A DNA stretch of 34,427 nt, from the IMG/VR virus record IMGVR_UViG_2718217885_000001; one strand, 5' to 3'. The notes beneath the pieces were generated by a model. That model did not search any database. It saw only the letters and a program-made list of their open reading frames with translations, and was not told where the DNA came from. This DNA comes from a virus (lineage: Duplodnaviria > Heunggongvirae > Uroviricota > Caudoviricetes). The translations under genes and the position numbers were made by a program. Of the stretch, positions 4,233 to 33,676 are shown one piece after another (position 1 is the stretch's first letter; every line of letters begins with the position of its first letter).

Positions 4233-4406
4233 TACTGTATTGCCACGTTTTTTTCGCGTCAGAATTATGGCGGGGCGTACGGGGCCGACTTCGGTCGGGC
4301 CGGGATCTCTTGTAGCCGGTACTGCGAACCTCGTACGTCTCGCCACCCACAGTTTCGCAGCTCTGGATGGTGAGTTTTCACAACTTACTACAAGAGGCCA
4401 CATATC

Positions 4407-4637: not shown

Positions 4638-4709
4638 TTCCTGTTCCGGGCCTTTCCTGCACCTTGCGGCGGGAGGCCTTCGCACATCTGTAACAAGAGG
4701 ATTGCCGCA

Positions 4710-5075: not shown

Positions 5076-5081
5076 ATCACT

Positions 5082-17973: not shown

Positions 17974-18377
17974 AGTTATGGACTTCTCTGGGCGTCGCTT
18001 TTCTTCTGATTGCCGCATGGGGAACATCCATGCGTCTGTCGTGGTCGCTGGGCCGGGAGAACGCCAGAAACGAAGCGCAGGCCAGCACCCTGAAAAGTAC
18101 CGTCGACACCCTGAATATCATCAGCACCGGGGTACAGGATATGCAGCAGGTGCTGGCGCAACTCCGCGTGGAAAATCAGCAACGCAATCAGGACGGAGAA
18201 GCCAGACGTGAACAGCTACGCAACGATATTGCAAAAGATGAATGCGCCCACGCTTTGCCTGATGCTCGTTTTACTGACAGGTTGCGCAGGCACGCAGAAC
18301 GCGCCACGGCCAGCGCCGTCAGTCCGGCTTATACCGCAGACGCTGACCATACCGGTAACGCCTCCCCCCTTCCCTGA
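17970..18377 (+). CDS. lysB: i-spanin (Rz/LysB-like inner-membrane spanin)
   Basis: ATGA overlap with the endolysin stop; N-terminal TM segment (LGVAFLLIAAWG) followed by a charged coiled-coil-like region. Confidence 0.7.
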   Translation: MKLWTSLGVAFLLIAAWGTSMRLSWSLGRENARNEAQASTLKSTVDTLNIISTGVQDMQQVLAQLRVENQQRNQDGEARREQLRNDIAKDECAHALPDARFTDRLRRHAERATASAVSPAYTADADHTGNASPLP

Positions 18378-18528
18378 CACTCCCACATGGGGAAATCTCG
18401 GTATATGGGGCGACCGCCTTCTGGATGCACTGGAAACCTGTAACGCAGATAAACGGGCCATTGAATTACTGGAACAGCGCAGGCTGCAACGACTGAACAA
18501 CGAGGACAACAACCATGCTGAAAACTGA
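18208..18528 (+). CDS. lysC: o-spanin (Rz1/LysC-like outer-membrane lipoprotein), start embedded in the +1 frame of the i-spanin
   Basis: Lipobox LLTGC|AG; proline-rich mature region; GTG at 18208 (ggagaa RBS) or ATG at 18238 possible. Confidence 0.65.
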   Translation: MNSYATILQKMNAPTLCLMLVLLTGCAGTQNAPRPAPSVRLIPQTLTIPVTPPPFPDTPTWGNLGIWGDRLLDALETCNADKRAIELLEQRRLQRLNNEDNNHAEN

Positions 18529-18982
18529 TTCCCTGCGTGAAGCCATGACCCGTTCATGCCGATGGTGTCAGGCCAACCCGGAAAAATTCACCATTTTCGT
18601 GGAGAGCGGCAACATTGAAACGACCGGAGAAACGCCCTCGTTTGTTTACCGCTATCAGATGGTGATGTTTGTCATGGATTACGCCGGGGAGCTGGACGAC
18701 CTCACGCTGCCGCTACTGGCGTGGTTATCAGAAAATCAGCCACAGTTGTTGCTCAATCCGGAGCGTAATCAGGACATCAAATTCTCCGCCGTTATCAATG
18801 ACGATGACAGCGCCGATCTCCTGTTTACGCTCCCTCTGCGGGAACGCGTTCGCATCACGCGCAGCAGTCAGGGCACGCCGCAGGCAGAACACCTGCCGGA
18901 GCCAAAACCCCGCCTGCTATCTTCCGAAGGCGACTGGTCGCATGTATTCCAGGATGTGACGTGGGGTGAAAGCGATGGATAA
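18515..18982 (+). CDS. R: Tail completion protein (P2 gpR-like)
   Basis: 155 aa, same length as P2 R; N-terminus MLKTDSLR and LPLLAWLSENQP resemble P2 R. Confidence 0.8.
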   Translation: MLKTDSLREAMTRSCRWCQANPEKFTIFVESGNIETTGETPSFVYRYQMVMFVMDYAGELDDLTLPLLAWLSENQPQLLLNPERNQDIKFSAVINDDDSADLLFTLPLRERVRITRSSQGTPQAEHLPEPKPRLLSSEGDWSHVFQDVTWGESDG

Positions 18983-19610
18983 GGCATTCACCCGCGTGGA
19001 TGAAACCTTTGAGGCCATCCGCGACAGCCTGAATCAGCAGGCCATCAATAACATCGCCAGAAAGCTGGCACAGGATTTACGCCGCGCCCAGCAGGCGCGT
19101 ATCCGGTCACAGAAAGCGCCGGACGGGACCGCGTGGACACCACGCAGACGCCGCGTAACCCGGATACAGGAACGCATTCGCTTTATCTGGAATAACGAAG
19201 CACGCACGCTGAAAAACTGGCATCACGACACGGGGAAATACGGGCGAACCATTACCGGGTGGGATGAGGATAAAAATAATATCCGCACGTTTTACCGGGA
19301 TGACATCGACCGTTTTCTGGAAATACGCACCCGGCGCATCAACCAGGACAGCACAAAGCGCGTCCCCATGTTCGTAAAACTGCGCACCGCCCGCTACCTG
19401 AAAGCCCGTGCAGATGCTTCCGGTGTGACGGTGGGTTACAGCGGCGTGGCCGCACGTATTGCACGCGTTCATCAGTTCGGTGAGCGCGATCAGGTTATGC
19501 CGGGCATTTTCACCGATTACCCGGTACGTGAGCTGCTGGGTATCAGCCAGGCAGATGAGCGCCTGATTTATAACACGGTGCTGGGCCGGATTGCGGAGGC
19601 TGTACGGTGA
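18975..19610 (+). CDS. S: Tail completion / virion morphogenesis protein (P2 gpS-like)
   Basis: ATG at 18975 overlapping the R stop; position between R and V. Confidence 0.7.
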   Translation: MDKAFTRVDETFEAIRDSLNQQAINNIARKLAQDLRRAQQARIRSQKAPDGTAWTPRRRRVTRIQERIRFIWNNEARTLKNWHHDTGKYGRTITGWDEDKNNIRTFYRDDIDRFLEIRTRRINQDSTKRVPMFVKLRTARYLKARADASGVTVGYSGVAARIARVHQFGERDQVMPGIFTDYPVRELLGISQADERLIYNTVLGRIAEAVR

Positions 19611-20188
19611 GCGCAGAACTCATGCGACTGCTGAGCAACATCATCCGCACCGGGATCATCTCTGAAGTTGATGAGAAGTCCTGGCGCGTGCGCGTTCGCA
19701 GCGGCGAACTGGAAACAGGCTGGCTGCGCTGGAACACCACGCGCGCGGGAGCCTTCAATGTGTGGCTGCCGCCATCACCAGGCGAACAGGTGGTAATAGC
19801 CTGCATTGGCGGCAACCCGGAAACCGCCATGATAATTGGCAGCCTGTGGAGTGATGCCAGTCCGGCCCCCGGCGAAAGCCTGAAAGAAATCGTGGTCAGT
19901 GCGCCGGATGGCGCGGTGTTCCGCTACGACGCGGACGCAGGCGCACTGAGCGCCAGCGGCATGAAAACAGCCACCCTGCAGGCATCCGTCAGCGTGACAC
20001 TGGATACGCCCGTCGTGGAATGCACAGACCTTCTGAGAACGGCGACGCTTGACGTCACAAAAGGGGGAAAGATGAGCGGCAATATCACGCACAGCGGCGG
20101 CAATTTCACCTCAAACGGCATCACAGTGCATACGCATAAACACGGTGGCGTTAAAGGTGGCAGCGATTCGACAGGAGGCCCGCAGTGA
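19607..20188 (+). CDS. V: Baseplate spike protein (P2 gpV-like)
   Basis: GTG start overlapping the S stop; 193 aa; position and size match P2 V. Confidence 0.8.
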   Translation: MSAELMRLLSNIIRTGIISEVDEKSWRVRVRSGELETGWLRWNTTRAGAFNVWLPPSPGEQVVIACIGGNPETAMIIGSLWSDASPAPGESLKEIVVSAPDGAVFRYDADAGALSASGMKTATLQASVSVTLDTPVVECTDLLRTATLDVTKGGKMSGNITHSGGNFTSNGITVHTHKHGGVKGGSDSTGGPQ

Positions 20189-20535
20189 CAACCCGCTACA
20201 CAGGAATGAACCCGGACGGAACGGGAAACCTGAACGATATGGAGCACCTGAAACAGTCAGTCAGGGACATCCTGACCACCCCGCTGGCCAGCCGGGTTAT
20301 GCGACGGGAATATGGCAGCCTTGTGCCTGATTTGATTGACGAACCCATGAATAACACCACGCGTCTGCAATGCATGAGTGCTGCCGTGATTGCACTGACA
20401 CGATGGGAACCCCGCATTGCCCTGGATGCCATCGATGTTGTCTGGAAAGCAGGAGGCCGCGCTGGGGTGACGCTGTCGGGCACTGTCATGCAGACCATGC
20501 AGAATGTTGAATTAACCATCACGCTGAGAGAGTAA
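20185..20535 (+). CDS. W: Baseplate wedge protein (P2 gpW / T4 gp25-like)
   Basis: GTG at 20185 with aggagg RBS; 116 aa; position after V. Confidence 0.8.
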   Translation: MTTRYTGMNPDGTGNLNDMEHLKQSVRDILTTPLASRVMRREYGSLVPDLIDEPMNNTTRLQCMSAAVIALTRWEPRIALDAIDVVWKAGGRAGVTLSGTVMQTMQNVELTITLRE

Positions 20536-20538
20536 ATC

Positions 20539-21435
20539 ATGCCTGCCGTTGACCTTTCCCAGTTACCGGAACCCGCCATCATAGCGGAGCCTGACTTTGA
20601 GGCAATTCTGGCTGACACAAAGGCCATGATGATTGCGTCCTATCCTGCCGAACAGCGTGAAGCCGTCTCCGCCGCGCTGGAGCTGGAATCGGAACCCCTG
20701 AACGTTATCGCTCAAACCATGTCTTTTCGTGAAATGCTGTTACGCCAGCGGGTTAACGAGGGGGCACGCGCCTGCATGTTAAGCCACAGCGCCGGAACAG
20801 ACCTGGACAACCTCGCGGGTAATATGAACACAAAGCGCCTGACCATCACTCCGGCAACGGATACCACCGATGCGGTGATGGAGAGTGACACCTCGCTGAG
20901 ACTGCGGGCGCAACGGGCGTACGACGGCCTGAGTGTTGCAGGCCCGTCAGGTGCATACGAGTATTTTGCCCGCAGCGCCAGCGGTCTGGTGCGTGATGCG
21001 CGGGCTATCAGTCCCTCTCCGGCAAATGTGACGGTTTCCATCCTGTCCACTGAAGGCGACGGCACAGCAACGGAGGCGTTGCTTAATACCGTTCGCGCCG
21101 TTCTGAATGCAGAGGATACCCGCCCGGTGGCCGACCGCCTGACCGTACAGAGCGCCAGAATCGTGACATGGCGGCTGAATGCAAAACTGTACTTTTACCC
21201 CGGCCCGGAATCCGAACCTATTCTGGCTGCGGCTGAATCGTCGTTCAGGAAGTGGCTGGCTGAGCAGGGGCTTATCGGTCAGGACGTGGCGTTGTCCGCC
21301 ATTGCTGCCGCACTGCATGTGCACGGTGTGCAACGCGTGGAGATAATCGAACCCACACAGAATATGGCCATCAGCGACATACAGGCGGCGCGCTGTGAGT
21401 CATTCACCATCAGCGAAGGTGGGCGTAATGAGTAA
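20539..21435 (+). CDS. J: Baseplate assembly protein J
   Basis: 298 aa; position and size match P2 J. Confidence 0.8.
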   Translation: MPAVDLSQLPEPAIIAEPDFEAILADTKAMMIASYPAEQREAVSAALELESEPLNVIAQTMSFREMLLRQRVNEGARACMLSHSAGTDLDNLAGNMNTKRLTITPATDTTDAVMESDTSLRLRAQRAYDGLSVAGPSGAYEYFARSASGLVRDARAISPSPANVTVSILSTEGDGTATEALLNTVRAVLNAEDTRPVADRLTVQSARIVTWRLNAKLYFYPGPESEPILAAAESSFRKWLAEQGLIGQDVALSAIAAALHVHGVQRVEIIEPTQNMAISDIQAARCESFTISEGGRNE

Positions 21436-22036
21436 TTCACTGTTACCACCATCAGCCAGCAATTTCATGCGTTGTGCCGAAGCCGTCGGAACACGCATTA
21501 CAGACATTCCGGTAGACCTCAACACGCTGTGGTCGCCGGACACCTGCCCGGCGCATCTGCTGCCTTATCTCGCCTGGGCGTTTTCCGTTGACCGCTGGGA
21601 TCGCAACTGGCCGGAAGAGACAAAGCGACAGGTGATTCGTGATGCATGGCTGATACACCGACACAAAGGGACCATCAGCGCACTGCGAAGAGCCGTGGAG
21701 CCTCTCGGCTACCTGATTGAAGTAAAGGAGTGGTGGCAACTCAACGAGGAGCCAGGAACATTTCGCATTGTTGTCGGAGTACTTGATCAGGGCATCACCG
21801 ATGAAATGTATCAGGAACTTGAGCGCCTTATTGCGGATGCAAAACCAGTAAGTCGCCATCTGACAGGGCTGGCGATCAGTCTGAGTGTGAACGGAAAGAT
21901 TTTCGTTGGTACGGGATGCTATCACGGCGATGCCCTGACGGTTTATCCCTACACCCCGGAGTCCATTATTGTCGAAGGGGATTATTTCCCTGCCCCGGCC
22001 ATTCATTTAATTGATAATCTGAGAGTAAACGCATGA
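21428..22036 (+). CDS. I: Baseplate assembly protein I
   Basis: ATG at 21428 overlapping the J stop; position before the tail fiber gene. Confidence 0.75.
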   Translation: MSNSLLPPSASNFMRCAEAVGTRITDIPVDLNTLWSPDTCPAHLLPYLAWAFSVDRWDRNWPEETKRQVIRDAWLIHRHKGTISALRRAVEPLGYLIEVKEWWQLNEEPGTFRIVVGVLDQGITDEMYQELERLIADAKPVSRHLTGLAISLSVNGKIFVGTGCYHGDALTVYPYTPESIIVEGDYFPAPAIHLIDNLRVNA

Positions 22037-23538
22037 CAGTGAAATACTACGCCATTCTGACTAATCAGGGCGCGGCACGACTGGCTAACGCGACGATGCT
22101 CGGCAGTAAGCTGAATCTGACGCAAATGGCCGTTGGTGATGCAAATGGTGTGTTACCAACACCAGACCCTGCACAAACAAAACTGATTAACCAGAAACGC
22201 ATTGCACCGCTGAATCTTCTGAGTGTTGACCCGAACAACCAGAACCAGATTATTGCGGAGCAAATCATCCCTGAGAACGAGGGCGGATTCTGGATACGTG
22301 AGATTGGGCTTTATGATGATGAAGGCGTACTCATTGCGGTGGCGAACTGCCCGGAAACGTACAAACCGCAGTTGCAGGAAGGCAGTGGTCGTACCCAGAC
22401 TATCCGCATGATTCTGGTTGTCACGAATACCGAAGCTATCACGCTGAAAATCGACCCGTCTGTGGTTCTGGCAACCCGCAAATATGTGGATGACAAAATC
22501 TCAGAGCACGAACAGTCACGACGCCACCCGGACGCCTCGCTGACCGCAAAAGGTTTCACTCAGTTAAGCAGTGCAATTAACAGTGAATCAGAAACACTGG
22601 CCGCAACACCGAAAGCGGTTAAGGCTGCATATGACCTGGCTAGCGGGAAATATACCGCCCAGAATGCCACCACAACACAAAAAGGGATTGTTCAGCTCAG
22701 TAGCGCCACGAACAGCACGTCTGAAACACTGGCAGCGACACCAAAAGCCGTTAAGGTGGTAATGGATGAAACAAACAAGAAAGCCCCATTAAACAGCCCG
22801 GCACTGACCGGAACGCCAACAACGCCAACAGCGCCACAGGGGACTAATAATACTCAGATCGCAAGCACGGCTTATGTTATGGCCGCGATTGCCGCGCTTG
22901 TAGACTCGTCACCTGACGCACTGAACACGCTGAACGAGCTGGCGGCGGCGCTGGGTAACGACCCGAATTTTGCGACAACCATGACTAACGCGCTTGCGGG
23001 TAAGCAACCGAAGGATGCTACCCTGACGGCGCTGGCAGGACTTGCTACAGCAGCAGATAAACTCCCTTATTTTACAGGTGCAGATCGCGCCGCGTTAACC
23101 GCACTGACAAGTGTTGGACGTGCCATTCTTAGTAAGCCCAGCACGCAGGGGGTTCTTGATTACCTTGGTTTGGGAGAAGCGGCAAAACGGGAGGTGGGGA
23201 CAGGGGAAAATCAGATACCGGACATGGCTTCTTTTGCCAGTGGTGATGGATGGATGAAATTACCCAACGGGAAAATCCTGCAATATGGTCGAGGTGCGGT
23301 TACGCCAACATTATCGACGCAAACAATGAGAATTACATTCAGCATCCCTTTTCCTAAAAAAGTGGACTGCGCCATGCTTACCCATTCTGGTGATGGTGGT
23401 GCGCCTTTAGGCGCTGGACGGGGATTCGTGATGACTGCAGAAGGTCCAACACTAACCGGTTTTAATTCCGCTTACAGAACTGCATCAACCAGCTCCACAG
23501 TATCGATGAATTACAGTTGGTGGGCTGTTGGTGAGTAA
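22033..23538 (+). CDS. H: Tail fiber protein (P2 gpH-like): constant N-terminal part plus currently expressed variable C-terminal part
   Basis: ATGA overlap with I; internal near-repeats SETLAATPKAVKAAYDLA / SETLAATPKAVKVVMDE typical of fibers; hix-like crossover site inside the gene at 23153-23178. Confidence 0.85.
   Translation: MTVKYYAILTNQGAARLANATMLGSKLNLTQMAVGDANGVLPTPDPAQTKLINQKRIAPLNLLSVDPNNQNQIIAEQIIPENEGGFWIREIGLYDDEGVLIAVANCPETYKPQLQEGSGRTQTIRMILVVTNTEAITLKIDPSVVLATRKYVDDKISEHEQSRRHPDASLTAKGFTQLSSAINSESETLAATPKAVKAAYDLASGKYTAQNATTTQKGIVQLSSATNSTSETLAATPKAVKVVMDETNKKAPLNSPALTGTPTTPTAPQGTNNTQIASTAYVMAAIAALVDSSPDALNTLNELAAALGNDPNFATTMTNALAGKQPKDATLTALAGLATAADKLPYFTGADRAALTALTSVGRAILSKPSTQGVLDYLGLGEAAKREVGTGENQIPDMASFASGDGWMKLPNGKILQYGRGAVTPTLSTQTMRITFSIPFPKKVDCAMLTHSGDGGAPLGAGRGFVMTAEGPTLTGFNSAYRTASTSSTVSMNYSWWAVGE
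23153..23178. promoter_or_regulatory. Left recombination site of the invertible tail-fiber segment (hix/gix-like, 26 bp)
   Basis: ttcttgattacc|ttggtttgggagaa; inner 14 bp is a perfect inverted repeat of 25044-25057; half-sites fit TTnTCnnAAACC. Confidence 0.75.
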
Positions 23539-23558
23539 TTTTATTCAGGGTGATTTAT

Positions 23559-24002
23559 ATGAACGAATATGTTTATAGCGCAAGGCATAATGCTTTTTTC
23601 CCTGTGGATATGATTGATAAATATAAATCAGAGGGATGGGATTTATCAGATGCAAAGGAGGTGAATCAAAATATTATCAGTGAGTTTATGGCTGAACCGC
23701 CACAAGGAAAAATCCGTATTGCCGGAGATGATGGGCTGCCTGCGTGGGCAGATATTCCTCTACCCACGCATGAAGAGCTTATTGAAATTACTGAATCAGA
23801 AAGACAGCTACTAATTAACCAGGCCAACGAATACATGAACAGTAAGCAATGGCCCGGTAAAGCCGCTATTGGTCGTCTGAAAGGTGAGGAACTGGCGCAA
23901 TATAATTTGTGGCTGGATTATCTGGATGCACTGGAGCTGGTTGATACCTCCAGTGCACCAGATATTGAATGGCCTACGCCTCCAGCAGTACAGGCCAGAT
24001 GA
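23559..24002 (+). CDS. G: Tail fiber assembly chaperone (gpG/Tfa-like), expressed orientation
   Basis: ATG at 23559 with aggg RBS; immediately downstream of H. Confidence 0.75.
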   Translation: MNEYVYSARHNAFFPVDMIDKYKSEGWDLSDAKEVNQNIISEFMAEPPQGKIRIAGDDGLPAWADIPLPTHEELIEITESERQLLINQANEYMNSKQWPGKAAIGRLKGEELAQYNLWLDYLDALELVDTSSAPDIEWPTPPAVQAR

Positions 24003-24576
24003 CCTCCGGCGCGGTGCTGGTATCTGTTGCCGTCACCGCGTCAATGTAATCCAGCACGGCGTTAAGTCGGGTTGTTTCTGCCTGCGTCAACTTCCGTCCG
24101 GCCTGCAATTTCAGTTGAATCAGACTGATGGAGGCCATCGCAGCATCAATCAGTGACTGGCGCTGTGCTTCTGCTGCTTCTACTGCGGCGTTATGCTGTG
24201 CCTCAGTATCTGTCACCCATTTCTCACCATCCCATTTATCGTATAGCGTTAACGGGGCGATAGTGGTTGTATTTTCAGGGTAATTACCCGGCACCGTGAT
24301 TTCTTTTGCTTCTCCTGTTTCGGTGCTATAGATAATTTCACCGCGATGGTCTGGCATATATTCCCATGAGTTTAAATCTACTGAACGGCAGATTGCATAA
24401 CCAGCCTTATATGTGCCAGGAGCATCTAAACAGGAATATGCCGGGATACCGACACCAACAGCAAGATATTCATTTGAAGTGGAAATATATTCCCGTGTTT
24501 CACCATCATAGTTATAGACGGTAATATTCCCCGCCTTCGTGGCAATAAGTTCGCTATTTAATACGGCTTTATCCAT
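23974..24576 (-). CDS. Alternative tail fiber assembly chaperone (Tfa'), silent orientation
   Basis: 200-aa ORF convergent with G and overlapping its 3' end; directly downstream of the alternative fiber C-terminal exon. Confidence 0.7.
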   Translation of the reverse strand: MDKAVLNSELIATKAGNITVYNYDGETREYISTSNEYLAVGVGIPAYSCLDAPGTYKAGYAICRSVDLNSWEYMPDHRGEIIYSTETGEAKEITVPGNYPENTTTIAPLTLYDKWDGEKWVTDTEAQHNAAVEAAEAQRQSLIDAAMASISLIQLKLQAGRKLTQAETTRLNAVLDYIDAVTATDTSTAPEVIWPVLLEA

Positions 24577-25097
24577 TATGCAGCTCTCACGATATAGTTA
24601 AATGCAATATTTCGTGGACGGGTTTCGCTCCCACCTGTGTTACCAATACTCCCTCGTGTATGTAGCGTTGGTGATGGAATCAGAGTTCCTCCGACATCGG
24701 CAGCATCAAGCCCCCGGCCTTGCGTATATGCTCTTCTGAAGATTGTCGCCAGTTCCCATTCCTCTTTTGAATCATACCCATCGTTGGCAACAACAATATG
24801 GCGGTGCTTCTCCAGCATCCCAGTCTGAATGCTCAATAAAGCACGTCCAGCATCAACGCCTCGTCCGTCATCCCAGCCACGAATAAACTCACCACGGAGA
24901 TCAGGTAGTTTCCCTGATGGATATGCTGTAGCAAGATGGGGATATTTAACCTTATCAAAGGCGGCGCCATTGCATTTCAACCAGCCTGTCGGCAAAGTGG
25001 CTGAAGGCCATGGAACAGGCACACCAACGGGTAATGCAGAGCCTTCTCCCAAACCAACGTTTGTGAAAATGCAGAGATAACGGGTAACTGGCATCAT
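24576..25097 (-). CDS. Alternative tail-fiber variable C-terminal exon (Hv'), promoterless in the current orientation
   Basis: Minus-strand ORF whose 5' end carries the right hix-like site; shares the junction peptide GLGE with H. Confidence 0.7.
   Translation of the reverse strand: MMPVTRYLCIFTNVGLGEGSALPVGVPVPWPSATLPTGWLKCNGAAFDKVKYPHLATAYPSGKLPDLRGEFIRGWDDGRGVDAGRALLSIQTGMLEKHRHIVVANDGYDSKEEWELATIFRRAYTQGRGLDAADVGGTLIPSPTLHTRGSIGNTGGSETRPRNIAFNYIVRAA
25044..25069. promoter_or_regulatory. Right recombination site of the invertible segment (hix/gix-like, 26 bp)
   Basis: ttctcccaaaccaa|cgtttgtgaaaa; inverted partner of 23153-23178. Confidence 0.75.
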
Positions 25098-25124
25098 CTC
25101 CGGTTTTTATTCAGGGGGATGCTC

Positions 25125-25715
25125 ATGCTTATTGGTTATGTTCGCGTATCAACAAATGACCAGAACACGGAATTGCAGCGTAACGCGCTGGAGTGCGCAG
25201 GATGTGAACTGATTTTTGAAGATAAAATCAGCGGAACGAAATCAGCCAGACCGGGATTGAAAAAACTGCTCAGAACGCTATCAGAAGGAGATACGCTGGT
25301 TGTCTGGAAGCTGGACAGGCTGGGCAGGAGTATGAAACACCTGATCACGCTTATTGAGGAATTGCGGGAAAAAGGTGTTAATTTCCGTAGCCTGACGGAC
25401 AGCATTGACACATCAACACCCATGGGGCGTTTCTTTTTTCACGTCATGGGAGCTTTAGCAGAAATGGAACGTGAATTAATTGTAGAGCGTACACTGGCCG
25501 GGCTGGCAGCAGCACGAGCACAGGGACGCATTGGCGGACGTCGCCCGAAGTTGACAAAAGAACAACATGAGCAAATAGAAAGGCTGATTAAAAACGGCCA
25601 TGACAGGAAACAACTGGCGATCATTTACGACATCGGTATATCGACGATTTATCGTTATCACCCTGTAGGCGATATACAGGCTGAAGAAACAACCGGGCAG
25701 ACTCAGGGAAAATAA
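25125..25715 (+). CDS. Serine DNA invertase of the Gin/Pin/Cin/Hin family
   Basis: N-terminus MLIGYVRVSTNDQNTELQRNAL with catalytic Ser, plus VVWKLDRLGRSMKHL and GRFFFHVMGALAEMERELI, nearly matching recalled Mu Gin; abuts the invertible segment. Confidence 0.9.
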   Translation: MLIGYVRVSTNDQNTELQRNALECAGCELIFEDKISGTKSARPGLKKLLRTLSEGDTLVVWKLDRLGRSMKHLITLIEELREKGVNFRSLTDSIDTSTPMGRFFFHVMGALAEMERELIVERTLAGLAAARAQGRIGGRRPKLTKEQHEQIERLIKNGHDRKQLAIIYDIGISTIYRYHPVGDIQAEETTGQTQGK

Positions 25716-25716
25716 A

Positions 25717-25745
25717 AAACCGCTAATCTGACCATTAGCGGTTTT
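25717..25745. terminator. Bidirectional intrinsic terminator between the convergent invertase and gpU genes
   Basis: aaaaccgctaat-ctgacc-attagcggtttt: 12-bp stem flanked by an A-run and a T-run. Confidence 0.7.
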
Positions 25746-25752
25746 GCGTTAA

Positions 25753-26247
25753 TCAAAACAGCCCTTTAACGGAGCTGGCCGCGCTGTTAAGGGATGATGT
25801 GACCTTATCTTTGAAGCCGGACAGCATATCACTGAACGATGAGGATTGCAGGCGCTCCCGCAAATCCTCATCACAGCGTTCAAGAGTCAGTGAAAATTCT
25901 ATCTTTTTCGCCTTACCGTAGCGATCAAACTCGGAACGGGTCGTATTCGTTTCAGTCAGCACATACATGCCGTAAATCTGCCCGACACCATCAATCAGAG
26001 GCCAGGGGCGTCCTGTATATGCCTGCGTGGTCAGCAACGAAAGCGACACTTCGCCACCTGTAATTTCAGGATAAAGCACGCCGGAAAGCACAATGCGATC
26101 ATCACCTGCACCGATATACTGCCAGCTTGCTGAACGGTTAACGCGTTCATTTTTCACATGCCGCCAGCTTTTGTTTTGCTGTAACTGCTGATGCGGCAAT
26201 GTGCGCAGCTCAAAAACAAACATGCCGTAGATCATCATCATGACCAT
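25753..26247 (-). CDS. U: Tail protein U
   Basis: 164 aa; recalled similarity to P2 U (MMMxxGxFVF, RSWRH, GGxxSLSxL, WPLIDGxGxIYGMYV). Confidence 0.8.
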   Translation of the reverse strand: MVMMMIYGMFVFELRTLPHQQLQQNKSWRHVKNERVNRSASWQYIGAGDDRIVLSGVLYPEITGGEVSLSLLTTQAYTGRPWPLIDGVGQIYGMYVLTETNTTRSEFDRYGKAKKIEFSLTLERCDEDLRERLQSSSFSDMLSGFKDKVTSSLNSAASSVKGLF

Positions 26248-26253
26248 GACTCC

Positions 26254-29070
26254 TCAATCTTTATCGTAAAAACTGCCACGTCCGGCACGGGCGCGCCGTT
26301 CCATCTCTGCCCTGACCATTTCACCGACCAGTTTCGCCAGTTCGCGGGGATTCTGCGTAACAACGTTATGCAGATGAACATGAATTTCACCGCAAAATCC
26401 GGAGACAGCAGGCTCCCGGTTACGGGAAGTTGCAGGAACTGATGCCACTGGCGATCGTATAGCCTCCGCCACCGGGCGGGAGCTGGCCGCAACAACAGGG
26501 ACCAGCGCCGGAGGCAGCGGAGCCGGGACCACGGGTGTGATGTTGATTGCGGAAGCAGGCTTACTGACCTGTGCAATCTTCCGCTCCTGCCACTCCCCAC
26601 GAACAGCAAGTGCGCGGGGCAGGTTCTTAAAGACAATATCGCCGGGGCCAATGCGTTTTTTCGTCTCATCAACCAGCTTACCTGTGTTATCAGCAATTTT
26701 GCTGAGTCTGCGCAGCGTACCGGTATTGCTGTCTGTGAGCGGTTTATTGTCTTTGGGGTTATCACCTCCGGTGCCATTGCCATTTTCCACAGGCTTCGGC
26801 GGATTGATTTTCGCCAGGTCCCCCTGAAGCAAGGCAACCTTGTCCTGAAGAATGGCCGCACGCTGTGCGTCTTCGATTTTCTTGCGCGCCCTTTCCGCTT
26901 CATCCGGAAGAACACCGAGTTTTTCAAGTATCCACGCCAGCGTATCCAGCAACATTTTTGCAGGCGTCAGAACAAGCTGTAACGCGCCACCAAGAACGTT
27001 ACCGAATATCTCGCCAGCACTGGTACATTTATCCAGCGTTTCCTTGCTGGACTCCATCGGTGACAGCAGCGATTTAAACCAGTTAAACACCTGACTGATC
27101 CCGCTTCCGATTGCGTCAAAAACAGGGCCAAACCGTTCAAAGGTTTCACGCAACGGGTTCAGCCTTTCCATAATCCCGCTGAACACCCCGGCAAAAAATG
27201 CCCTGATGGGATCCCAGTATTTCCAGATAAGAACGGCAGCTCCGGCGAGCGCAGCCACAATAAGACCAACCGGACTGAACAGCGCCCCGATAGCGCCTCC
27301 CAGCAAAGAAACGGAACCCGTCAGCATTCCCCACAGCGCAGGCAACACCCTGACGACATTCATTGACCGGGTAAGAATGTCAAAACCAAGACGCAAGGTG
27401 GCCAGCTTTCCGTAAAGCACCCCAATAACCAGCGACAACGAGCCAATCGTTGCAGTCATTGCCAGCAACGCACCGCCTGCTATCAGTAGCTGGCGTGTCA
27501 GTACCGGATGGGCCTGCGCCAGCGAGGTGATTTTTTCAAGCACACGCGTGAGCCACTGCGTGACAGAACGCAGCGGACCGTCAACCAGATCACTGATGCG
27601 AATACGAAGACCTTCCCATGCGCTGTCGAGATTTTTCAGGTCCCCATCAAGATTATCGGCCATTACTTTTGCAACGCGATCGGCCTCTCCCCTTGCCCCC
27701 TGCAATTCTCTGGTCAGTTTTTGCAGCTCTCCTGAACCAGCCGCCGCAACAAGCGTCTGCAAACCAACGAACGCCTCTTCTCCGGCGATGTCCTTGAAGA
27801 AGGAGACCTGGTCCACCTGTCCGTATTTTTGTGTCGCCTTATAGAGATCAAGCAGCACATCCTCCATCGGGCGCATTTTGCCTCTGGCGTCAGCAACTGA
27901 CACCCCCAGCTCTTTCAGTGCATCAGCCGCAGCTTTTGGCGGTGATGCAAGGCGGGACAGACTTGCGCGCATGGCCGTGCCAGCATCGCTTCCGCGAAGA
28001 CCATTATTGGCAAGCATCCCGGCCATGGCCGCCGCTTCTTCAAGACTGATACCAAGTTTTGCGGCAACCGGACCGGTATACTTCATGGTTTCGCCCAGCG
28101 CGCGTAAATCAGTATTGGTCCGGGTGAATGCTGCTGTCAGCGTATCGCCCACCCGGTCCATTTGATCGGCTGTCAGGTTGAACTGTGTGAGGATATTGGA
28201 GCCTATATCAGCCGTCTCGCCGAGTTCGACGCCACCTGCCAGCGCCATATTAAGAACACCGGGCAATGCGGCCTGAATGGCCTGCGGAGTAAAACCAGCC
28301 ATTGCCAGAAAGCTCTGCCCACTGGCGGCATCACTCGCAGTAAACTGTGTTTCAGAGCCAAGTTTTAACGCCTGCTCACGCAGCGCCTTAAACTGCGGGC
28401 TGTTTTTGTCGATTCGCGTCAGTGCCTGAACGCGGGACATCTCTTTGCCGAACCCGATCGCAGGCTGCAAAAAACGCCCGGCAGCATAGCCGCCCGCCGC
28501 TGCCGCACCAATTGCCAGCGCACCACCTGTTTTCAGTTTTCCCGCGGTTTCCTGCGCGCGCGAATACCGCTCACGCGCCCGCGTTACACGCGCAAGCGCC
28601 TGCCGTTCGCGTTCAAGCTGGTTGTTGTACTGTTCGGTGCGTCTGATGGCCTGCTGGATGGTGTTATCGCTGCCTGTCAGGGAAATGCCGTGGCGTTTCA
28701 GCTCTCCGCCAAGCTCCCGCATTTTCTGAATTTCCCGTGTGCGCGATTCATTCAGGCGTTCAAGCCGGGTGCTTAACTGCTGCATCAGCTTTTGTTGTTT
28801 TTCGCTGAGCACTGTACCCGTGCGTTGTAACTGATTAAGGGCGTTAAGCTGGCGTCGTGCTTTCACGATACCCGCATCCGCTTTACTGACAGCGTCGCGG
28901 GCGCGCTCAAATGATCGCGCCTGACGCTCGAGATTTTTGATCGCCCCCTGCGTTCGCTGGATGGAGTCACCAAACTGCCCCATCAGGCGGCGGGCGTTTT
29001 CGGCAGGCCGGGTCAGCCTGTCAACGGCGCTGAAAGCGACCCGGATATCAAGAGTCTTCATTGTCTGCAT
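26254..29070 (-). CDS. T: Tail tape measure protein (P2 gpT-like)
   Basis: About 940 aa, coiled-coil rich N-terminus and Gly/Ala-rich hydrophobic middle; start uncertain (ATG 29070 or 29061, or GTG 29097); overlaps the end of E'. Confidence 0.85.
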   Translation of the reverse strand: MQTMKTLDIRVAFSAVDRLTRPAENARRLMGQFGDSIQRTQGAIKNLERQARSFERARDAVSKADAGIVKARRQLNALNQLQRTGTVLSEKQQKLMQQLSTRLERLNESRTREIQKMRELGGELKRHGISLTGSDNTIQQAIRRTEQYNNQLERERQALARVTRARERYSRAQETAGKLKTGGALAIGAAAAGGYAAGRFLQPAIGFGKEMSRVQALTRIDKNSPQFKALREQALKLGSETQFTASDAASGQSFLAMAGFTPQAIQAALPGVLNMALAGGVELGETADIGSNILTQFNLTADQMDRVGDTLTAAFTRTNTDLRALGETMKYTGPVAAKLGISLEEAAAMAGMLANNGLRGSDAGTAMRASLSRLASPPKAAADALKELGVSVADARGKMRPMEDVLLDLYKATQKYGQVDQVSFFKDIAGEEAFVGLQTLVAAAGSGELQKLTRELQGARGEADRVAKVMADNLDGDLKNLDSAWEGLRIRISDLVDGPLRSVTQWLTRVLEKITSLAQAHPVLTRQLLIAGGALLAMTATIGSLSLVIGVLYGKLATLRLGFDILTRSMNVVRVLPALWGMLTGSVSLLGGAIGALFSPVGLIVAALAGAAVLIWKYWDPIRAFFAGVFSGIMERLNPLRETFERFGPVFDAIGSGISQVFNWFKSLLSPMESSKETLDKCTSAGEIFGNVLGGALQLVLTPAKMLLDTLAWILEKLGVLPDEAERARKKIEDAQRAAILQDKVALLQGDLAKINPPKPVENGNGTGGDNPKDNKPLTDSNTGTLRRLSKIADNTGKLVDETKKRIGPGDIVFKNLPRALAVRGEWQERKIAQVSKPASAINITPVVPAPLPPALVPVVAASSRPVAEAIRSPVASVPATSRNREPAVSGFCGEIHVHLHNVVTQNPRELAKLVGEMVRAEMERRARAGRGSFYDKD

Positions 29071-29577
29071 TCCCGCTGCGAAGTGCCGCCCGCTCACGCC
29101 AGCTAACCACTTCGCCGGGCGTCATCATGAAGATTTCGGCGGGCGACCAGTTAAAAATGGCGGCAATATCCGCCACAAAGTCTTCTATGTGCTCAAAGCA
29201 CACAACCGTGATCAGGCTTCCGTCGCCTGTTCGTTCTTCCCGCCAGAGTCCGCACCGCTCAAAAAATTTACGGCAACCACACATAACTGAATAAAGTCAC
29301 GGGATGCCATTTTTTTGATCGTCACTTCATCCAGTCGCGGTGATGTCACGCGTGACAGCAGCGTAAACATGGATTCCGCTTTCAGATTCAGCACATCAGA
29401 CAGCGACAAATCTCGCAGAGATCCAGCCTGCTCAATAGCCCCGGTGATCTCCACATACGTGATTTTTTCGCCGCCTCGCTCAATTGGTTGGGTAAGTTTT
29501 ACGCCACGCTCACTGGTTTCTTTCACAGTGTCAGTAACTACCGTGTTTTCGGTATCGATGTTTTTCGTCTCTTTCAT
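29048..29577 (-). CDS. Tail assembly chaperone E+E' fusion made by programmed -1 ribosomal frameshift
   Basis: -1 frame stays open from the slippery site down to 29048, overlapping the T start, as in P2 E/E'. Confidence 0.6.
29212..29577 (-). CDS. E: Tail assembly chaperone E (in-frame product)
   Basis: 121-aa ORF between the tube and tape measure genes; slippery heptamer near its 3' end. Confidence 0.75.
   Translation of the reverse strand: MKETKNIDTENTVVTDTVKETSERGVKLTQPIERGGEKITYVEITGAIEQAGSLRDLSLSDVLNLKAESMFTLLSRVTSPRLDEVTIKKMASRDFIQLCVVAVNFLSGADSGGKNEQATEA
29260..29266 (-). other. Slippery heptamer T TTT TTG for the -1 frameshift in E
   Basis: Minus-strand gta aat ttt ttg agc (E frame) versus cgt aaa ttt ttt gag (E' frame); same heptamer as the P2 E/E' site. 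Confidence 0.6.
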
Positions 29578-29631
29578 CAGGAAACTCCTTTCAGTCAGAG
29601 GCGACGCACTGCGCCGCCTGCATATTACTTA

Positions 29632-30144
29632 TCAGCCAAGCCCAAGCGCGGAACGGATGCGATCGGGCACAATGTCCTTGCCGTCCTTCCGGTAAATGAA
29701 GTTCAGCAGGTCAATCTCCCACAACGGGCGATCGTTAACACTCAGCTTGTAGTAGGTGTTTTTAATGGCGTAAGTGTGTGATGTGGCTTCGCCCTGTTTG
29801 GCTTCCCCCATATCAATTTCCGTCACACGTCCGCGCATTTCGACTTCATACAGGTCGCTTTCTGCATCGGTGTAGTATTCACCCGCAAAACGCAGCAGCG
29901 TGCCGTCAATCGTGCCGCCATACTTAAGGAACAGCTCACGAACTGCGCCCCCCATGACAAAGCTCGCATCAAGCGCGGAGTCGTCCAGACCGAGATCAAT
30001 ACTTACCGCACCCATCATGCCGCCCCCCCGGTAGCTGTCGGTTTTGCGCGTCAGCTTAGGCAGAGTGACGGACGTCACCTTACCCACTTCGTTTTCACCA
30101 TCCACAAACAGCGTAAAAAAGCGAAGATGTTTTGGTACAGCCAT
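29632..30144 (-). CDS. FII: Tail tube protein (P2 gpFII-like)
   Basis: 170 aa; immediately downstream of the sheath gene. Confidence 0.85.
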   Translation of the reverse strand: MAVPKHLRFFTLFVDGENEVGKVTSVTLPKLTRKTDSYRGGGMMGAVSIDLGLDDSALDASFVMGGAVRELFLKYGGTIDGTLLRFAGEYYTDAESDLYEVEMRGRVTEIDMGEAKQGEATSHTYAIKNTYYKLSVNDRPLWEIDLLNFIYRKDGKDIVPDRIRSALGLG

Positions 30145-31328
30145 CAGGCACCTCCCAGCACCGCAAATGCGGGACCAAAGAATTCATCAGTAAACGACTG
30201 GTAAAGCTCCATGTCTTCCAGCGGGGGAACAGGCGTATATTTGTAGCGAATACGCACGCGCCCCTGACGTAAATCCGTGGTGCCGTTATCCACCACGTCA
30301 TACCAGCACGACGCCCCAATCAGTTTCCCGGCAGTAACCAGTGAATCCAGTTTTGCCCTGATGGCACTGATAACATCTTTCACGTTCGCAGGCGTCAGTG
30401 GACTGTCGATGGTTTCAAACTGCGCTTCCGCAATTGAATCAGCCAGCACCTGTGCGGTTCGGGTATACACCTCAAAGATGTAGGCGTTCGTTTCCGGTGT
30501 GCGGTTGCCCCAGAAGCGGAACCCGTTGCGACGAATAATGGTCGTGATTTCTTTGTTGTTGAGGCTGTTGGCATCACTGTCTTCGGCCTGCAACGACCAG
30601 AACACATGCCTGGACATCCCCAGCACATTTTTAACCGGAACGTTGGACAGCGATTTGTGCCAGCCCTGCTCATGGTCAATGTACGCACGAAGGCCGCACG
30701 CATAGGCAGGCGCGGGGAACGTTTCGTTTTTGCCACTTTTCGGGTTGTAGGCGATGAAGTCCGGCCATAAGAGCATCACCTCACGTTCGTTGAATTTCTG
30801 GCGGTAGGTAATCGCCTCAGCCATCGTGTTACAGCCGTGACATGAGGCATACACAAACGCGCGCAGTTTACCCGCAATCACGCACAGGGATTTTGTTACC
30901 GCCTCCGTGTCCAGCTCCGGCGCGGCCAGAATACGCGGACGGTATCCGATGCTTTCATCCTGCTCTGCAACAAGCAGCGCATACATCCCCGTATAGCTGC
31001 CGTCATCCTCAGAACCACCGATAACCAGTTGATCCTGCGTCTTTCCGTCTTCTTCTTTGTGTTCAGCCACGCGAACGACGATCACCTTTGTGCTCACCTG
31101 GTCTGCGATGGCCTTAAGCGCACGATAAAGCGTCCCCGTTGTCCCGCATTTTCCCAGCACGTCATTGACGCGGGTCAGCAGTGTGGGCTTGTTCAGCGGG
31201 AACAGCTTCGCGTCCGCATCATCCGCCGTTGCCACGATACCGATAACGCTGGAATCAACATCGTTAATCGCTGTTACCAGGTCGGTATTTTCCGTAACAC
31301 GGGCACCATGAAAACGAGTTTCACTCAT
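30144..31328 (-). CDS. FI: Contractile tail sheath protein (P2 gpFI-like)
   Basis: 394 aa; aagggg RBS; first gene of the minus-strand tail operon. Confidence 0.85.
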   Translation of the reverse strand: MSETRFHGARVTENTDLVTAINDVDSSVIGIVATADDADAKLFPLNKPTLLTRVNDVLGKCGTTGTLYRALKAIADQVSTKVIVVRVAEHKEEDGKTQDQLVIGGSEDDGSYTGMYALLVAEQDESIGYRPRILAAPELDTEAVTKSLCVIAGKLRAFVYASCHGCNTMAEAITYRQKFNEREVMLLWPDFIAYNPKSGKNETFPAPAYACGLRAYIDHEQGWHKSLSNVPVKNVLGMSRHVFWSLQAEDSDANSLNNKEITTIIRRNGFRFWGNRTPETNAYIFEVYTRTAQVLADSIAEAQFETIDSPLTPANVKDVISAIRAKLDSLVTAGKLIGASCWYDVVDNGTTDLRQGRVRIRYKYTPVPPLEDMELYQSFTDEFFGPAFAVLGGA

Positions 31329-31485
31329 AGCTTCAGCCCCTTGTATCCGTTAAATGATTCGGCAACAATCATCACCCACCACGCGCGTAATCTCACCCCT
31401 GCGCTATTCTCCCGCCACGGCGACAACAAAAAGCAGTAACCCACTCCGCACACACATGCGACCATGCCGCACAGGGAGGGAACAG
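31329..31485. promoter_or_regulatory. Divergent promoter region between the sheath operon (leftward) and D (rightward)
   Basis: 157-bp noncoding spacer between divergent starts; has no counterpart in canonical P2, where FI...U-D are co-linear. Confidence 0.4.
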
Positions 31486-32595
31486 ATGACCGACACCACC
31501 ATGCAATTGCTCAGTCAGGGCACAGACCCCGTGAAAATGCCGGATTTTGATATTCTCGCGGAGGGTAAAACGCTGTCCGGCGTGGCAGAGCGCCTGATGA
31601 GCCTGTCGCTGACCGACAACCGGGGATTTGAGGCGGACCAGCTCACCATCACGCTGGATGATGCCGATGGCCAGTTGCAGCTACCGCCACGGGGCGCGCG
31701 TCTGACGGTTCTCATTGGCTGGAAAGGGGAACCGCTGACAGAAAAAGGCACTTACATTGTTGATGAAATCGCTCACGAAGGACCGCCGGACAGGCTGACT
31801 GTTTCAGCCAGAAGCGCAGATTTTCGGGATGAATTTAACGTTAAACGTGAGGTGTCCTGGCATGATGTGACCGTTGAGCGTGTGGTATCCGCCATCGCTC
31901 ATCGGTACGGTCTGAAACCGCAAATCAGCGAAATGCTGATGGATATCGAAATCGACCACGCCGACCAGACCGAAGAAAGCGACATGTCCTTCCTTACGCG
32001 CATGGCGGAAATGCTGGGCGCAATCACCACGGTAAAAAGCGGTAATCTGTTATTCATCATGCCCGGAGGTGGCGTGAACGCGCAGGGCCAGCCGTTGCCA
32101 TCGTTTGCCATCACACGCAGCAGCGGCGATCGCCATCAGTTCCGCATTGCTGACCGCGAGGCGTATACGGGTGTACGCGCCTACTGGCTTGATCTTAATT
32201 ACGGGAAAAAGAAAAAAGTCAGCGTGAAACGCCGCAAACCGCCAAAACCCAAAAAGGAGAAAAGCAGCAGCCGCGAAGGTGACTATATGGAAGGTGCGGA
32301 AGGCAACGTATTTGTGTTACGCAAGACTTATCAGAACGAGCAGGCAGCAAGACGCGCAGCGGCGGCAAAGTGGCAGCAGCTACAACGCGGAGCCGCATCA
32401 TTTTCCATCACGCTGGCACGTGGACGCGCAGAACTCTACCCCGAAATGCATGGCACGGTAACAGGATTTAAAAGCGAGATTGATAATCAGGACTGGATTA
32501 TTGCAAAAGCCGAGCACACCATTGATAACAGCGGCTTTACCACGCAGCTTGAGCTTGAGGCAAAAATCCCGGAATGGATAGCGGAAACAGACTGA
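31486..32595 (+). CDS. D: Tail protein D (late-gene product, P2 gpD-like)
   Basis: ATG at 31486 with gggaggg RBS; about 369 aa; followed by the ogr-like gene. Confidence 0.75.
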   Translation: MTDTTMQLLSQGTDPVKMPDFDILAEGKTLSGVAERLMSLSLTDNRGFEADQLTITLDDADGQLQLPPRGARLTVLIGWKGEPLTEKGTYIVDEIAHEGPPDRLTVSARSADFRDEFNVKREVSWHDVTVERVVSAIAHRYGLKPQISEMLMDIEIDHADQTEESDMSFLTRMAEMLGAITTVKSGNLLFIMPGGGVNAQGQPLPSFAITRSSGDRHQFRIADREAYTGVRAYWLDLNYGKKKKVSVKRRKPPKPKKEKSSSREGDYMEGAEGNVFVLRKTYQNEQAARRAAAAKWQQLQRGAASFSITLARGRAELYPEMHGTVTGFKSEIDNQDWIIAKAEHTIDNSGFTTQLELEAKIPEWIAETD

Positions 32596-32637
32596 GCAAC
32601 TTAGAATAGCGGCAGCACCACGTTAAGGGAGGTCGCT

Positions 32638-32898
32638 ATGTTCCGTTGTCCGCTTTGTGGCGCATCTGCCCGTATCCGCACCAGTCGTCCGGAAAATGAT
32701 TCAAACACCGTGCGGCAAAAGTATTACCAGTGTAACAACCTGGAATGCGGCGTATGCTTCTCAACACTGGAAGCCTTCCATAAATTCACATCAAAACACG
32801 CCTCCGGCGTTCACTCTTCAGAAGGTATCCCGTGGCATGAGCTGCCAGCTTCACACAGGGGAAACAATCAGATGAGTTTGCCTTTATCTCAGAATTAA
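32638..32898 (+). CDS. ogr: Ogr/Delta-type zinc-finger late transcription activator
   Basis: N-terminus MFRCPLCGASARIRTSR...YYQCNNLECGVCF, C-x2-C...C-x4-C like P2 Ogr (MFHCPLC...YHQCQNVNC); gggagg RBS. Confidence 0.8.
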   Translation: MFRCPLCGASARIRTSRPENDSNTVRQKYYQCNNLECGVCFSTLEAFHKFTSKHASGVHSSEGIPWHELPASHRGNNQMSLPLSQN

Positions 32899-33315
32899 CA
32901 GGCAGAATTGCCGGAGTAACAAAAAAGCGATAGATTACGCGCGGGTGCCTTTCGGCTGATGGTCGGAGGGAATACCCGAAGGCCAGATGTGGAAAGGCCC
33001 GGAAAACATTTTTGTTTAACCGAGGCCCTAACACTTCTTACCTTCGCAAGTAGAAGGTTAGCGCCTCTCCTCTCAGGAGACAAGCGTTATGACGCAAATT
33101 CCGTTAAAAACCCTGTTACTTTGCATAACTGCGGTAGCGATAATCTGGATCCTCCACACATCACCGTGCGAGTTACGATTCAGGTTTGCTGGCACGGAAA
33201 TTGCGGCATTCTTACTATGTAATAAGTAAGATAACCGCGACGGGGGAGTAATCCCCCGTCAATCGGTTGCTAAGGTTGGTCGAAACGGCACCCTATCTCA
33301 CAGACATGAACAACA

Positions 33316-33349
33316 AACCCGCAGCGTAAAAACTGCGGGTTTTCTTTTT
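33316..33349 (+). terminator. Strong rho-independent terminator
   Basis: aaacccgcag-cgtaaaaa-ctgcgggttt followed by tctttttg. Confidence 0.75.
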
Positions 33350-33396
33350 GCTACCCTCACAAATGAGGGCAGCATCCATAAGCAATAGGCATAACA

Positions 33397-33431
33397 GATC
33401 GATGCAATAAATCCGATCGATAAAAACGATC
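33397..33431. promoter_or_regulatory. Cluster of three GATC (Dam) sites inside ATCGAT palindromes, just upstream of a -10-like element and the com-like gene
   Basis: GATC at 33397-33400, 33415-33418, 33428-33431; then ttgttatcat. Confidence 0.5.
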
Positions 33432-33478
33432 GATTTGTTATCATATCGGCAGCAGTAACCACACAAGAGGTGCCGCAA

Positions 33479-33676
33479 ATGACGCAAAATGTACGATGCA
33501 AAAATTGCAACAAACTACTTGCCCGCGCCTCATTTCACTACATTGAAATAAAATGTCCGCGCTGCAAAACACTTAACCAGATAACGAGAGCCATCGAGCA
33601 CCCCACACACATGAGGAGTTATGACCGTGGGGATCGCAATCCAGCACCAACCAGCACATACACCGGAACACACTAA
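33479..33676 (+). CDS. com: Com-like zinc-finger translational activator (Mu Com family)
   Basis: MTQNVRCKNCNKLLARASFHYIEIKCPRCKTLNQ...EHPT resembles recalled Mu Com (RCKNCNKLL...HIEIRCPRCK...EHPT); ATG at 33479 with aagagg RBS; 3' end overlaps the next gene. Confidence 0.75.
   Translation: MTQNVRCKNCNKLLARASFHYIEIKCPRCKTLNQITRAIEHPTHMRSYDRGDRNPAPTSTYTGTH
33601..33632 (+). promoter_or_regulatory. Hairpin enclosing the methyltransferase RBS and start codon (candidate Com-responsive translational operator)
   Basis: ccccac (33601-33606) pairs with gtgggg (33627-33632); loop holds GAGGAG and the ATG at 33621. Confidence 0.45.

Follow-up and report, generated by a model that had tools for sequence, protein, structure and literature searches.

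How does a P88-like prophage come to carry two tail-fibre tips and two fibre chaperones, set in convergent pairs beside a gene for a serine DNA invertase, and does this arrangement act as a switch? The window analysed here, by which we mean the whole stretch of 34,427 nt, is a P88-like (Xuanwuvirus, Peduoviridae) prophage in E. coli MFDS1022581. Its placement in Xuanwuvirus follows from the P88 gene order, in which the FI-U tail block lies on the opposite strand, and from the high DNA identity (93.6–95.7% to P88, NC_026014, across 11 kb out of 15.5 kb of P88 sequence compared). With a probability of roughly 93%, we read the locus as a site-specific inversion switch of the Gin/Cin/Pin type that serves phage host range. 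Its mechanism and its family are already established, as is the occurrence of this family in P2-like prophages, and the switch is in that sense textbook and ordinary. A prophage able to present two receptor-binding tips nevertheless bears on host-range prediction for P88-like phages, and the switch is relevant to reading E. coli assemblies and to their correct annotation; otherwise its importance is small.

Two 26-bp crossover sites of the pix/hix type delimit the segment, at the positions and with the letters described in the first-pass annotation. The left site (L, 23153–23178) lies inside the tail-fibre gene H and reads TTCTTGATTACC TT GGTTTGGGAGAA, with the core TT at 23165–23166, and the right site (R, 25044–25069) reads TTCTCCCAAACC AA CGTTTGTGAAAA, with the core AA at 25056–25057; the two are in inverted orientation and their central dinucleotides match (TT/AA). 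The inner 14 bp, previously called perfect inverted repeats, are so indeed, and the perfect stretch is longer, 15 bp (23165–23179 / 25043–25057); a repeat search returned it as 18 nt at 94%. All four half-sites had been said to fit TTnTCnnAAACC. Over its nine specified positions they match at 6/9, 9/9, 9/9 and 8/9, and thus the fit stands for three half-sites but not for the outer half of L, which the 6/9 match marks as degenerate. Judged on the letters, this poorly fitting half may count as a point against an inversion switch. A perfect repeat of 15 bp is also short, and on length alone L and R could be chance inverted repeats beside an unrelated resolvase gene, with no programmed inversion. 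However, when the whole 34-kb window was scanned for dyad sites at a threshold of at least 14/18 positions, with shuffled windows as the null, L and R were the sole hits (two observed against 0.1 expected per shuffled window) and stood exactly where a switch requires them. Run as a positive control, the same scan found the known sites of e14, the cixL crossover of P7 and the G-segment boundaries annotated in Mu. Because the breakpoints of the natural flips described below also fall within these repeats, coincidence is already refuted and retains practically no probability.

H itself is an intact ORF (22033–23538, 501 aa). Its constant N-terminal part extends up to the crossover (22033–23164, + strand; Pfam Phage_tail_fib, E 2.5e-63, and Phage_fiber_2 repeats) and is followed by the variable C-terminus currently expressed, a gp53-like tip (23167–23538, + strand; Gp53-like_C, PF21882, E 7e-12), and by the 147-aa assembly chaperone of that tip (23559–24002, + strand; Caudo_TAP, E 1.6e-30), which is 53% identical to TfaP of e14. 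The opposite strand holds the alternative variable C-terminus, of the tail-collar type and silent as oriented here (24576–25055, − strand; Collar, PF07484, E 4.5e-14), together with its TfaE-type chaperone of 200 aa (23974–24576, − strand; Caudo_TAP, E 2e-29; PGAP name tfaE), 88% identical to TfaE of K-12. The two chaperone genes are convergent and overlap by 29 bp, and the tips belong to separate Pfam families. These Pfam matches confirm the earlier proposal of two C-termini and two chaperones within the ~1.9 kb between the sites; when the invertase, the tips and the chaperones were compared with NCBIfam, no model reached its cut-off. Because H is read in frame through the left site, its constant part can be joined to one or the other tip. 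In-silico inversion replaced AAKREV by GSALPVGV directly after YLGLGE with the frame kept, turning H (501 aa) into H' (537 aa), as anticipated from the aligned sites. Each orientation yields an in-frame fibre with its own C-terminus, followed by the cognate chaperone. The two tips presumably bind different receptors.

A Gin-like serine invertase had been placed just outside the right site, and this is where it lies (25125–25715, + strand, 196 aa; Pfam Resolvase, E 5e-52, and HTH_7), outside the segment and starting 55 bp beyond R. The likely start is revised from 25119 to 25125, which has the ribosome-binding site GGGGGA and gives the same N-terminus as in Gin, Cin and Pin. The protein has the layout of a small serine recombinase, with an N-terminal catalytic domain containing Ser9 and a C-terminal HTH, and it matches the Mu Gin structures 4m6f/3uj3 (E about 3.5e-91) in a gapless alignment to Gin residues 1–182 that includes S9; the catalytic serine is thus unmutated. 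Amino acid identity is 76% to Mu Gin and, in the catalytic domain, 90% to PinE, whereas the DNA-binding domain is of the P88 type (60% to PinE, 89% to P88). Residues S9, R42, K46, K47, R50, Q150, R153 and L154 are all present. In Hin, the residues touching Fis or the enhancer are K47, K/R48, K/R51, Q151, R154 and L155 (PMC3798978), and these have counterparts in K46, K47, R50, Q150, R153 and L154 here. A hairpin terminator with a 12-bp stem and T runs on both sides (25716–25745, not assigned to a strand) separates the invertase gene from the convergent gpU gene.

Both orientations of the exact sequence occur in nature. Contig AAROQQ020000034.1, from another isolate (locus L013), shows 0 mismatches across 9,614 bp to the window as flipped in silico, and at NCBI the exact flipped 537-aa fusion is found on eight contigs and the unflipped protein on five. 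Similarly, the near-identical prophages of O157:H7 strains BB24-1 and FRIK944 differ by one SNP across 19,120 bp and by an exact 1,884-bp reverse complement, this flip of the homologous segment being bounded by the same 15-bp repeat; in FRIK944 the annotation gives the flipped form as a full-length protein of 544 aa. Matching complete genomes carry the window orientation in eight cases and the flipped one in nine. Between isolates, the segment does invert at these sites. In this lysogen, the switch could still be a fossil, its parts intact but inversion ceased, for example with the invertase unexpressed, and the database orientations would then be rare past events. The exact window sequence is indeed found in one complete genome only, and a simple scan detected no sigma-70-like promoter upstream of the invertase, an absence that would fit a fossil and may speak against an inversion switch altogether. 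Nevertheless, the invertase ORF and all its key residues are intact, relatives carry the two orientations at similar frequencies, and the flipped isolate without a mismatch over 9.6 kb implies a very recent flip; a defunct switch is very improbable. A side observation concerns annotation: in one of the two orientations PGAP wrongly calls the fibre gene a fragment, which the inversion switch accounts for.

An enhancer had been suggested as something to seek in the 5′ end of the invertase gene, and there the outcome was divided. By homology to the annotated P7 cin enhancer (nt 19–86), a conserved, enhancer-like stretch at 25143–25210 (no strand assigned) is a candidate Fis-dependent recombinational enhancer, but a scan with a naive Fis consensus was equivocal, giving several candidates and no clear 48-bp pair. 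The Fis-like cores (25146–25160 and 25195–25209) were placed only by homology to the P7 cin annotation, which replaced the naive scan. These two G...C 15-mers are 49 bp apart, the Din-family criterion being two Fis sites ~48 bp apart. Within the candidate stretch, GTATCAACAAATGAC is identical across the window, Mu gin and P7 cin, and nucleotide identity is 79–81%, compared with 63–64% over the rest of the invertase gene. The proximal core lies ~96 bp from the centre of R; the corresponding distance from Fis site to crossover in Hin is ~100 bp (PMC3798978). Dependence on Fis, and likewise the flipping rate, are points that we infer. In the proposed mechanism, invertase dimers would bind both 26-bp sites and, with Fis on the enhancer (the first ~90 nt of the invertase gene), would form an invertasome on supercoiled DNA; cuts at the central TT/AA dinucleotides, rotation and religation would then flip ~1.89 kb. 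The constant N-terminal part of H (377 residues) would end either in the gp53-like tip (501 aa, as here) or in the tail-collar tip (537 aa), and in either orientation the cognate chaperone gene would lie directly downstream of the joined tip on the same strand.

The closest known relatives of the segment are the P segment with PinE of e14 in E. coli K-12 and the e14-like elements of O157:H7. Their inner half-sites and TT/AA core are identical to those here, the e14 right site is one base apart from R, and the e14-like elements share 88.8% DNA identity with the window over the entire segment and on into the invertase gene, for its first ~440 nt. The e14 invertase likewise lies outside its segment, both orientations occur among strains, and inversion has been shown by PCR too (PMC4272514). 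In e14, the inverted product StfE2 blocks T2 adsorption, a reported defence role (PMC12529663). By analogy, the flip might serve the host, in addition to phage host range or in its place, one fusion product acting as a receptor-blocker against other phages in the lysogen, and the StfE/TfaE type of the alternative tip and chaperone, with the TfaE and segment identities given above, agrees with this. Unlike e14, a defective lambdoid element, the present element is a myovirus prophage with an intact fibre gene. Against a host-serving role, this gene belongs to what looks like a complete late operon of the P88 kind, subject to phage late control; P88 can be induced and is active as a phage, and the sequence carries no sign of expression in the lysogen. 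We consider such a host-serving role quite unlikely.

The host-range switch shares its logic with other phage systems, and the earlier comparison to Mu G, P1 C and e14 pin holds in its sites, frames, domains and natural flipped product. In Mu G/Gin and P1-P7 C/Cin, too, the fibre gene contains one of the sites, two pairs of tip and chaperone converge, and the invertase (76–77% aa identity to the one here) is encoded just outside the right site; the enhancer in the 5′ end of its gene has the candidate stretch as its counterpart here. The segments of Mu (3 kb) and P7 (~4 kb) differ from the 1.9 kb here in size and in their tips. The core dinucleotide is TT/AA, as in hix, cix and pix, while gix has TC/GA. 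Salmonella Hin/hix belongs to the same recombinase subfamily, also uses 26-bp sites whose core is AA/TT, has Fis-contact residues that are conserved here and presumably shares the Fis/enhancer control, but the hin gene lies within its own segment, which flips a promoter and not coding exons. The Fin invertase of Fels-2 is reportedly a further parallel, ascribed to Kutsukake in 2006. That canonical P2 has no such switch is true, but the unusualness this implied was overstated, since P88, pro483 and Peduovirus magyaro share the architecture. The latter two have the same pix-type sites and, like the P2-like loci of EPEC E2348/69, are P2-family cases with the invertase between fibre and tail genes; all of these are of the Peduovirus type and differ in having the tail operon on the same strand. 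In EPEC E2348/69, invertible tail-fibre loci in P2-like prophages were shown by sequencing to undergo phase variation (Goldberg et al., 2014, PMC4272514). One of these loci has three repeats and four variants, whereas the window has two sites only.

P88 itself matches the window in gene order (H, tfa, tfa′, H′, invertase, the opposite-strand genes U-T-E-FII-FI, then D) and in DNA identity, which is 94–96% both over the genes of the baseplate and over the stretch running from the invertase gene across those of the tail. H is 73–87% identical to P88 H at 22240–23078, and 23079–25125 has no similarity to P88, whose own cassette is of the Mu G type, with gix-type sites (core TC/GA) and chaperones resembling those of Mu. 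Homology to the e14-like elements starts within the left site, the sequences upstream being unrelated. This boundary, together with a different, Mu-type cassette at the same place in a P88 backbone, points to a cassette that might be a mobile unit, swapped among unrelated prophages by invertase recombination at the crossover sites; we regard this as unlikely. Pointing the same way is a draft contig found in four samples (L012), in which two convergent P2-like fibre operons are linked through one segment common to both, with a hybrid site. Recombination between the sites of two prophages would be expected to give this arrangement; it would amount to a large chromosomal inversion and leave two prophages sharing one switch. 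None of 5,426 complete genomes covers at least 80% of L012, which may be a draft-assembly chimera.

Two further ideas about the surrounding prophage were rejected. The reversed FI-U tail block (25753–31328) might have arisen through the invertase acting at secondary sites, but the window has no more such sites and the order is the normal one of P88. Gene D, annotated by PGAP as truncated, is an intact ORF with a ribosome-binding site, running from 31487.

The invertible segment of the tail-fibre gene H was followed from in-silico inversion to its naturally flipped counterparts. When 23165-25057 was reversed in silico, both crossover sites were left unchanged, and H was converted from a 501-aa protein reading ...VLDYLGLGE-AAKREVGTGENQ... 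into a 537-aa protein reading ...VLDYLGLGE-GSALPVGVPVPWP...IAFNYIVRAA, with a 200-aa chaperone directly downstream; the proposed in-frame fusion of constant H to an alternative tip is thus borne out. The window itself matches the E. coli MFDS1022581 chromosome at 100% identity, and at a coverage of at least 80%, 8 complete E. coli genomes were recovered for the window orientation and 9 for the flipped query. NCBI contains an identical copy of the predicted 537-aa fusion of the window allele on 8 contigs and of the 501-aa form on 5, and over 9,614 bp contig AAROQQ020000034.1 (GCA_012110325.2) shows 0 mismatches to the in-silico flipped window (18033-27646). The predicted inversion has therefore happened in nature on the exact window sequence, and its crossover falls inside the proposed sites. 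A second exact flip is provided by O157:H7 BB24-1 and FRIK944, which share one prophage (about 93% identity to the window) and differ over 19,120 bp by one SNP and the exact reverse complement of 1,884 bp (0 mismatches), bounded by the same 15-bp repeat as in the window. The PGAP annotation of NZ_CP169399.1 breaks the intact 501-aa H ORF (22033-23538) into a 'partial' pseudogene and a short gp53-like ORF, whereas the flipped, fused fibre of FRIK944 is annotated full-length (544 aa); the PGAP fibre annotation thus depends on segment orientation.

The crossover sites read as the first-pass annotation had described them, namely as 26-bp sites with perfectly inverted inner halves. The left site (23153-23178, TTCTTGATTACC TT GGTTTGGGAGAA) lies inside the 501-aa ORF and the right site at 25044-25069 (TTCTCCCAAACC AA CGTTTGTGAAAA); the perfect inverted repeat spans 15 bp (23165-23179 / 25043-25057) and was extendable to 18 nt at 94% in the repeat search. 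Of the 9 positions specified in TTnTCnnAAACC, the four half-sites match 6, 9, 9 and 8. In inverted orientation the central dinucleotides, TT and AA, are identical, as strand exchange by a serine invertase requires. When the whole 34,427 bp were scanned for dyads, only these two sites scored at least 14/18, where a shuffled window would be expected to give 0.1. The criterion is meaningful because, on reference loci, the same scan recovered both e14 sites, and its hits were centred on the Mu G-segment boundaries and the P7 cixL crossover as annotated.

Pfam assignments agree with the proposed arrangement of two tips and two convergent chaperones bracketed by the sites, with a Gin-like invertase outside the right site. 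Within 22033-23538, the N-terminal part of H matches Phage_tail_fib and fibre repeats and its current C-terminus Gp53-like_C; chaperone 1 (23559-24002, + strand) and chaperone 2 (23974-24576, - strand) both match Caudo_TAP and are 36% identical in their C-terminal parts, and the alternative tip (24576-25055, - strand) carries a tail Collar domain. The constant part of H also contains a 77-nt direct repeat (22548-22624 / 22680-22756, 73% identity), the counterpart of two Phage_fiber_2 protein repeats. The invertase gene (25125-25715, + strand; Resolvase and HTH_7) is followed by a hairpin terminator (25716-25745) between it and the convergent gpU gene.

The invertase aligns without gaps to Mu Gin (PDB 4m6f, 3uj3) over residues 1-182 (E about 1e-91), with 76% identity to Gin and 77% to P7 Cin, and the nucleophile Ser9, whose mutation would have spoken against the switch, is in place. 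It is a mosaic protein: the catalytic domain is nearest to PinE and pro483 (90-92%), while the DNA-binding domain is nearest to P88 (89%) and only 49-60% identical to PinE/pro483. One type of DNA-binding domain works on pix-type sites in the window and on gix-type sites in P88. An invertase matching at E<=1e-40 is encoded by 114 records of the phage collection, and the Fels-2 prophage of Salmonella LT2 encodes the same kind of invertase, Fin. Residues specific to Fis/enhancer-dependent invertases are, in Hin, K47, K/R48, K/R51, Q151, R154 and L155 (PMC3798978); the window invertase has K46, K47, R50, Q150, R153 and L154. The suggested search for an enhancer in the 5' end of the gene yielded a conserved stretch at 25143-25210, the counterpart by homology of the cin enhancer annotated at cin nt 19-86 in the P7 record. 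Its DNA identity to Mu gin and P7 cin is 79-81%, against 63-64% in the rest of the gene, and codon identity at conserved residues is, in a small sample, about 50-55% versus about 30% elsewhere. A conserved G...C 15-mer, GTATCAACAAATGAC (25146-25160), is identical in the window, Mu gin and P7 cin, and a second, GCGCAGGATGTGAAC, lies at 25195-25209; the former is about 96 bp from the right-site centre, similar to the reported Hin spacing of ~100 bp. From this conservation we infer that Fis would bind the candidate enhancer.

The prophage has the gene order of P88 (Xuanwuvirus, Peduoviridae), an inducible, active phage, including the opposite-strand U-T-E-FII-FI block followed by D, with 93.6-95.7% identity over 18878-21871 and 25126-33098. 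No similarity to P88 was found in 23079-25125; at the same position in H, the P88 cassette is of the Mu G type and has gix-type sites with core TC/GA (P88 locus, 4276-7501). In contrast, the P segment and pinE of e14-like elements are 88.8% identical to window 23162-25565, with homology starting within the left site and unrelated DNA upstream. By these comparisons, the cassette is a module of e14 type set in a P88 backbone. Phages pro483 and Peduovirus magyaro have the same pix-type cassette in canonical P2 gene order. The mosaic boundary at the left site, together with the arrangement of draft contig PTRO01000028.1 (GCA_002966065.1), suggests, as a reading of low probability, that cassettes may be exchanged, or prophages recombine, at the crossover sites themselves. 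In that contig (4001-9614), a P88-like H is fused to the collar tip and followed by the remainder of the segment, a hybrid site (TTCTCCCAAACC AA GGTATGCGAGAA) and the convergent second H (473 aa), I, J and W of another P2-like prophage, such that two convergent fibre operons share a single segment with no invertase between them. Such an arrangement reflects either an inversion between two prophages, made by the invertase, or a chimera in the draft assembly; since none of 5,426 complete genomes shows it, it may be the latter.

The first-pass annotation is correct in both observation and interpretation. In all respects tested, the switch conforms to the Gin/Cin/Pin design, with the e14 P segment as its nearest relative; both this type of system and the phage lineage that carries it were known before. 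Inversion has been shown by sequencing for e14, with PCR confirmation also reported, and for the tail-fibre loci of two P2-like EPEC prophages (PMC4272514), and a 2024 preprint describes the Z/fun hotspot of P2-like phages as often having an invertase. StfE2, the product that e14 makes in its inverted state, is reported in a 2025 paper to block adsorption of T2 (PMC12529663), and by analogy an additional host-defence role could be imagined for the window switch, with low probability.

Several other features of the prophage were observed. The tail sheath-to-U block (U, T, E/E', FII and FI; 25753-31328, - strand) is reversed relative to canonical P2 and pro483; the window invertase was rejected as its cause, and the reversal is a genus trait, since invertase sites are absent from the flanks and the order is normal for P88. 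Within 31354-32595 of the window, PGAP calls D short with an upstream pseudo fragment in NZ_CP169399.1, but truncation is ruled out by an intact ORF with an RBS from 31487 (31487-32595, + strand). The replication gene A homologue (5082-7904) is unusually long (940 aa), and after it, at 7981-8940, comes a full-length ParM-type actin-like segregation protein gene (StbA_N and ParM_N), a plasmid-partition gene within a P2-family prophage. The right end (about 32638-34427) carries ogr, a Hok/Gef toxin gene, a Com-family regulator and an N6/N4 DNA methyltransferase, a layout that recalls Mu, in which com-mom follows gin.
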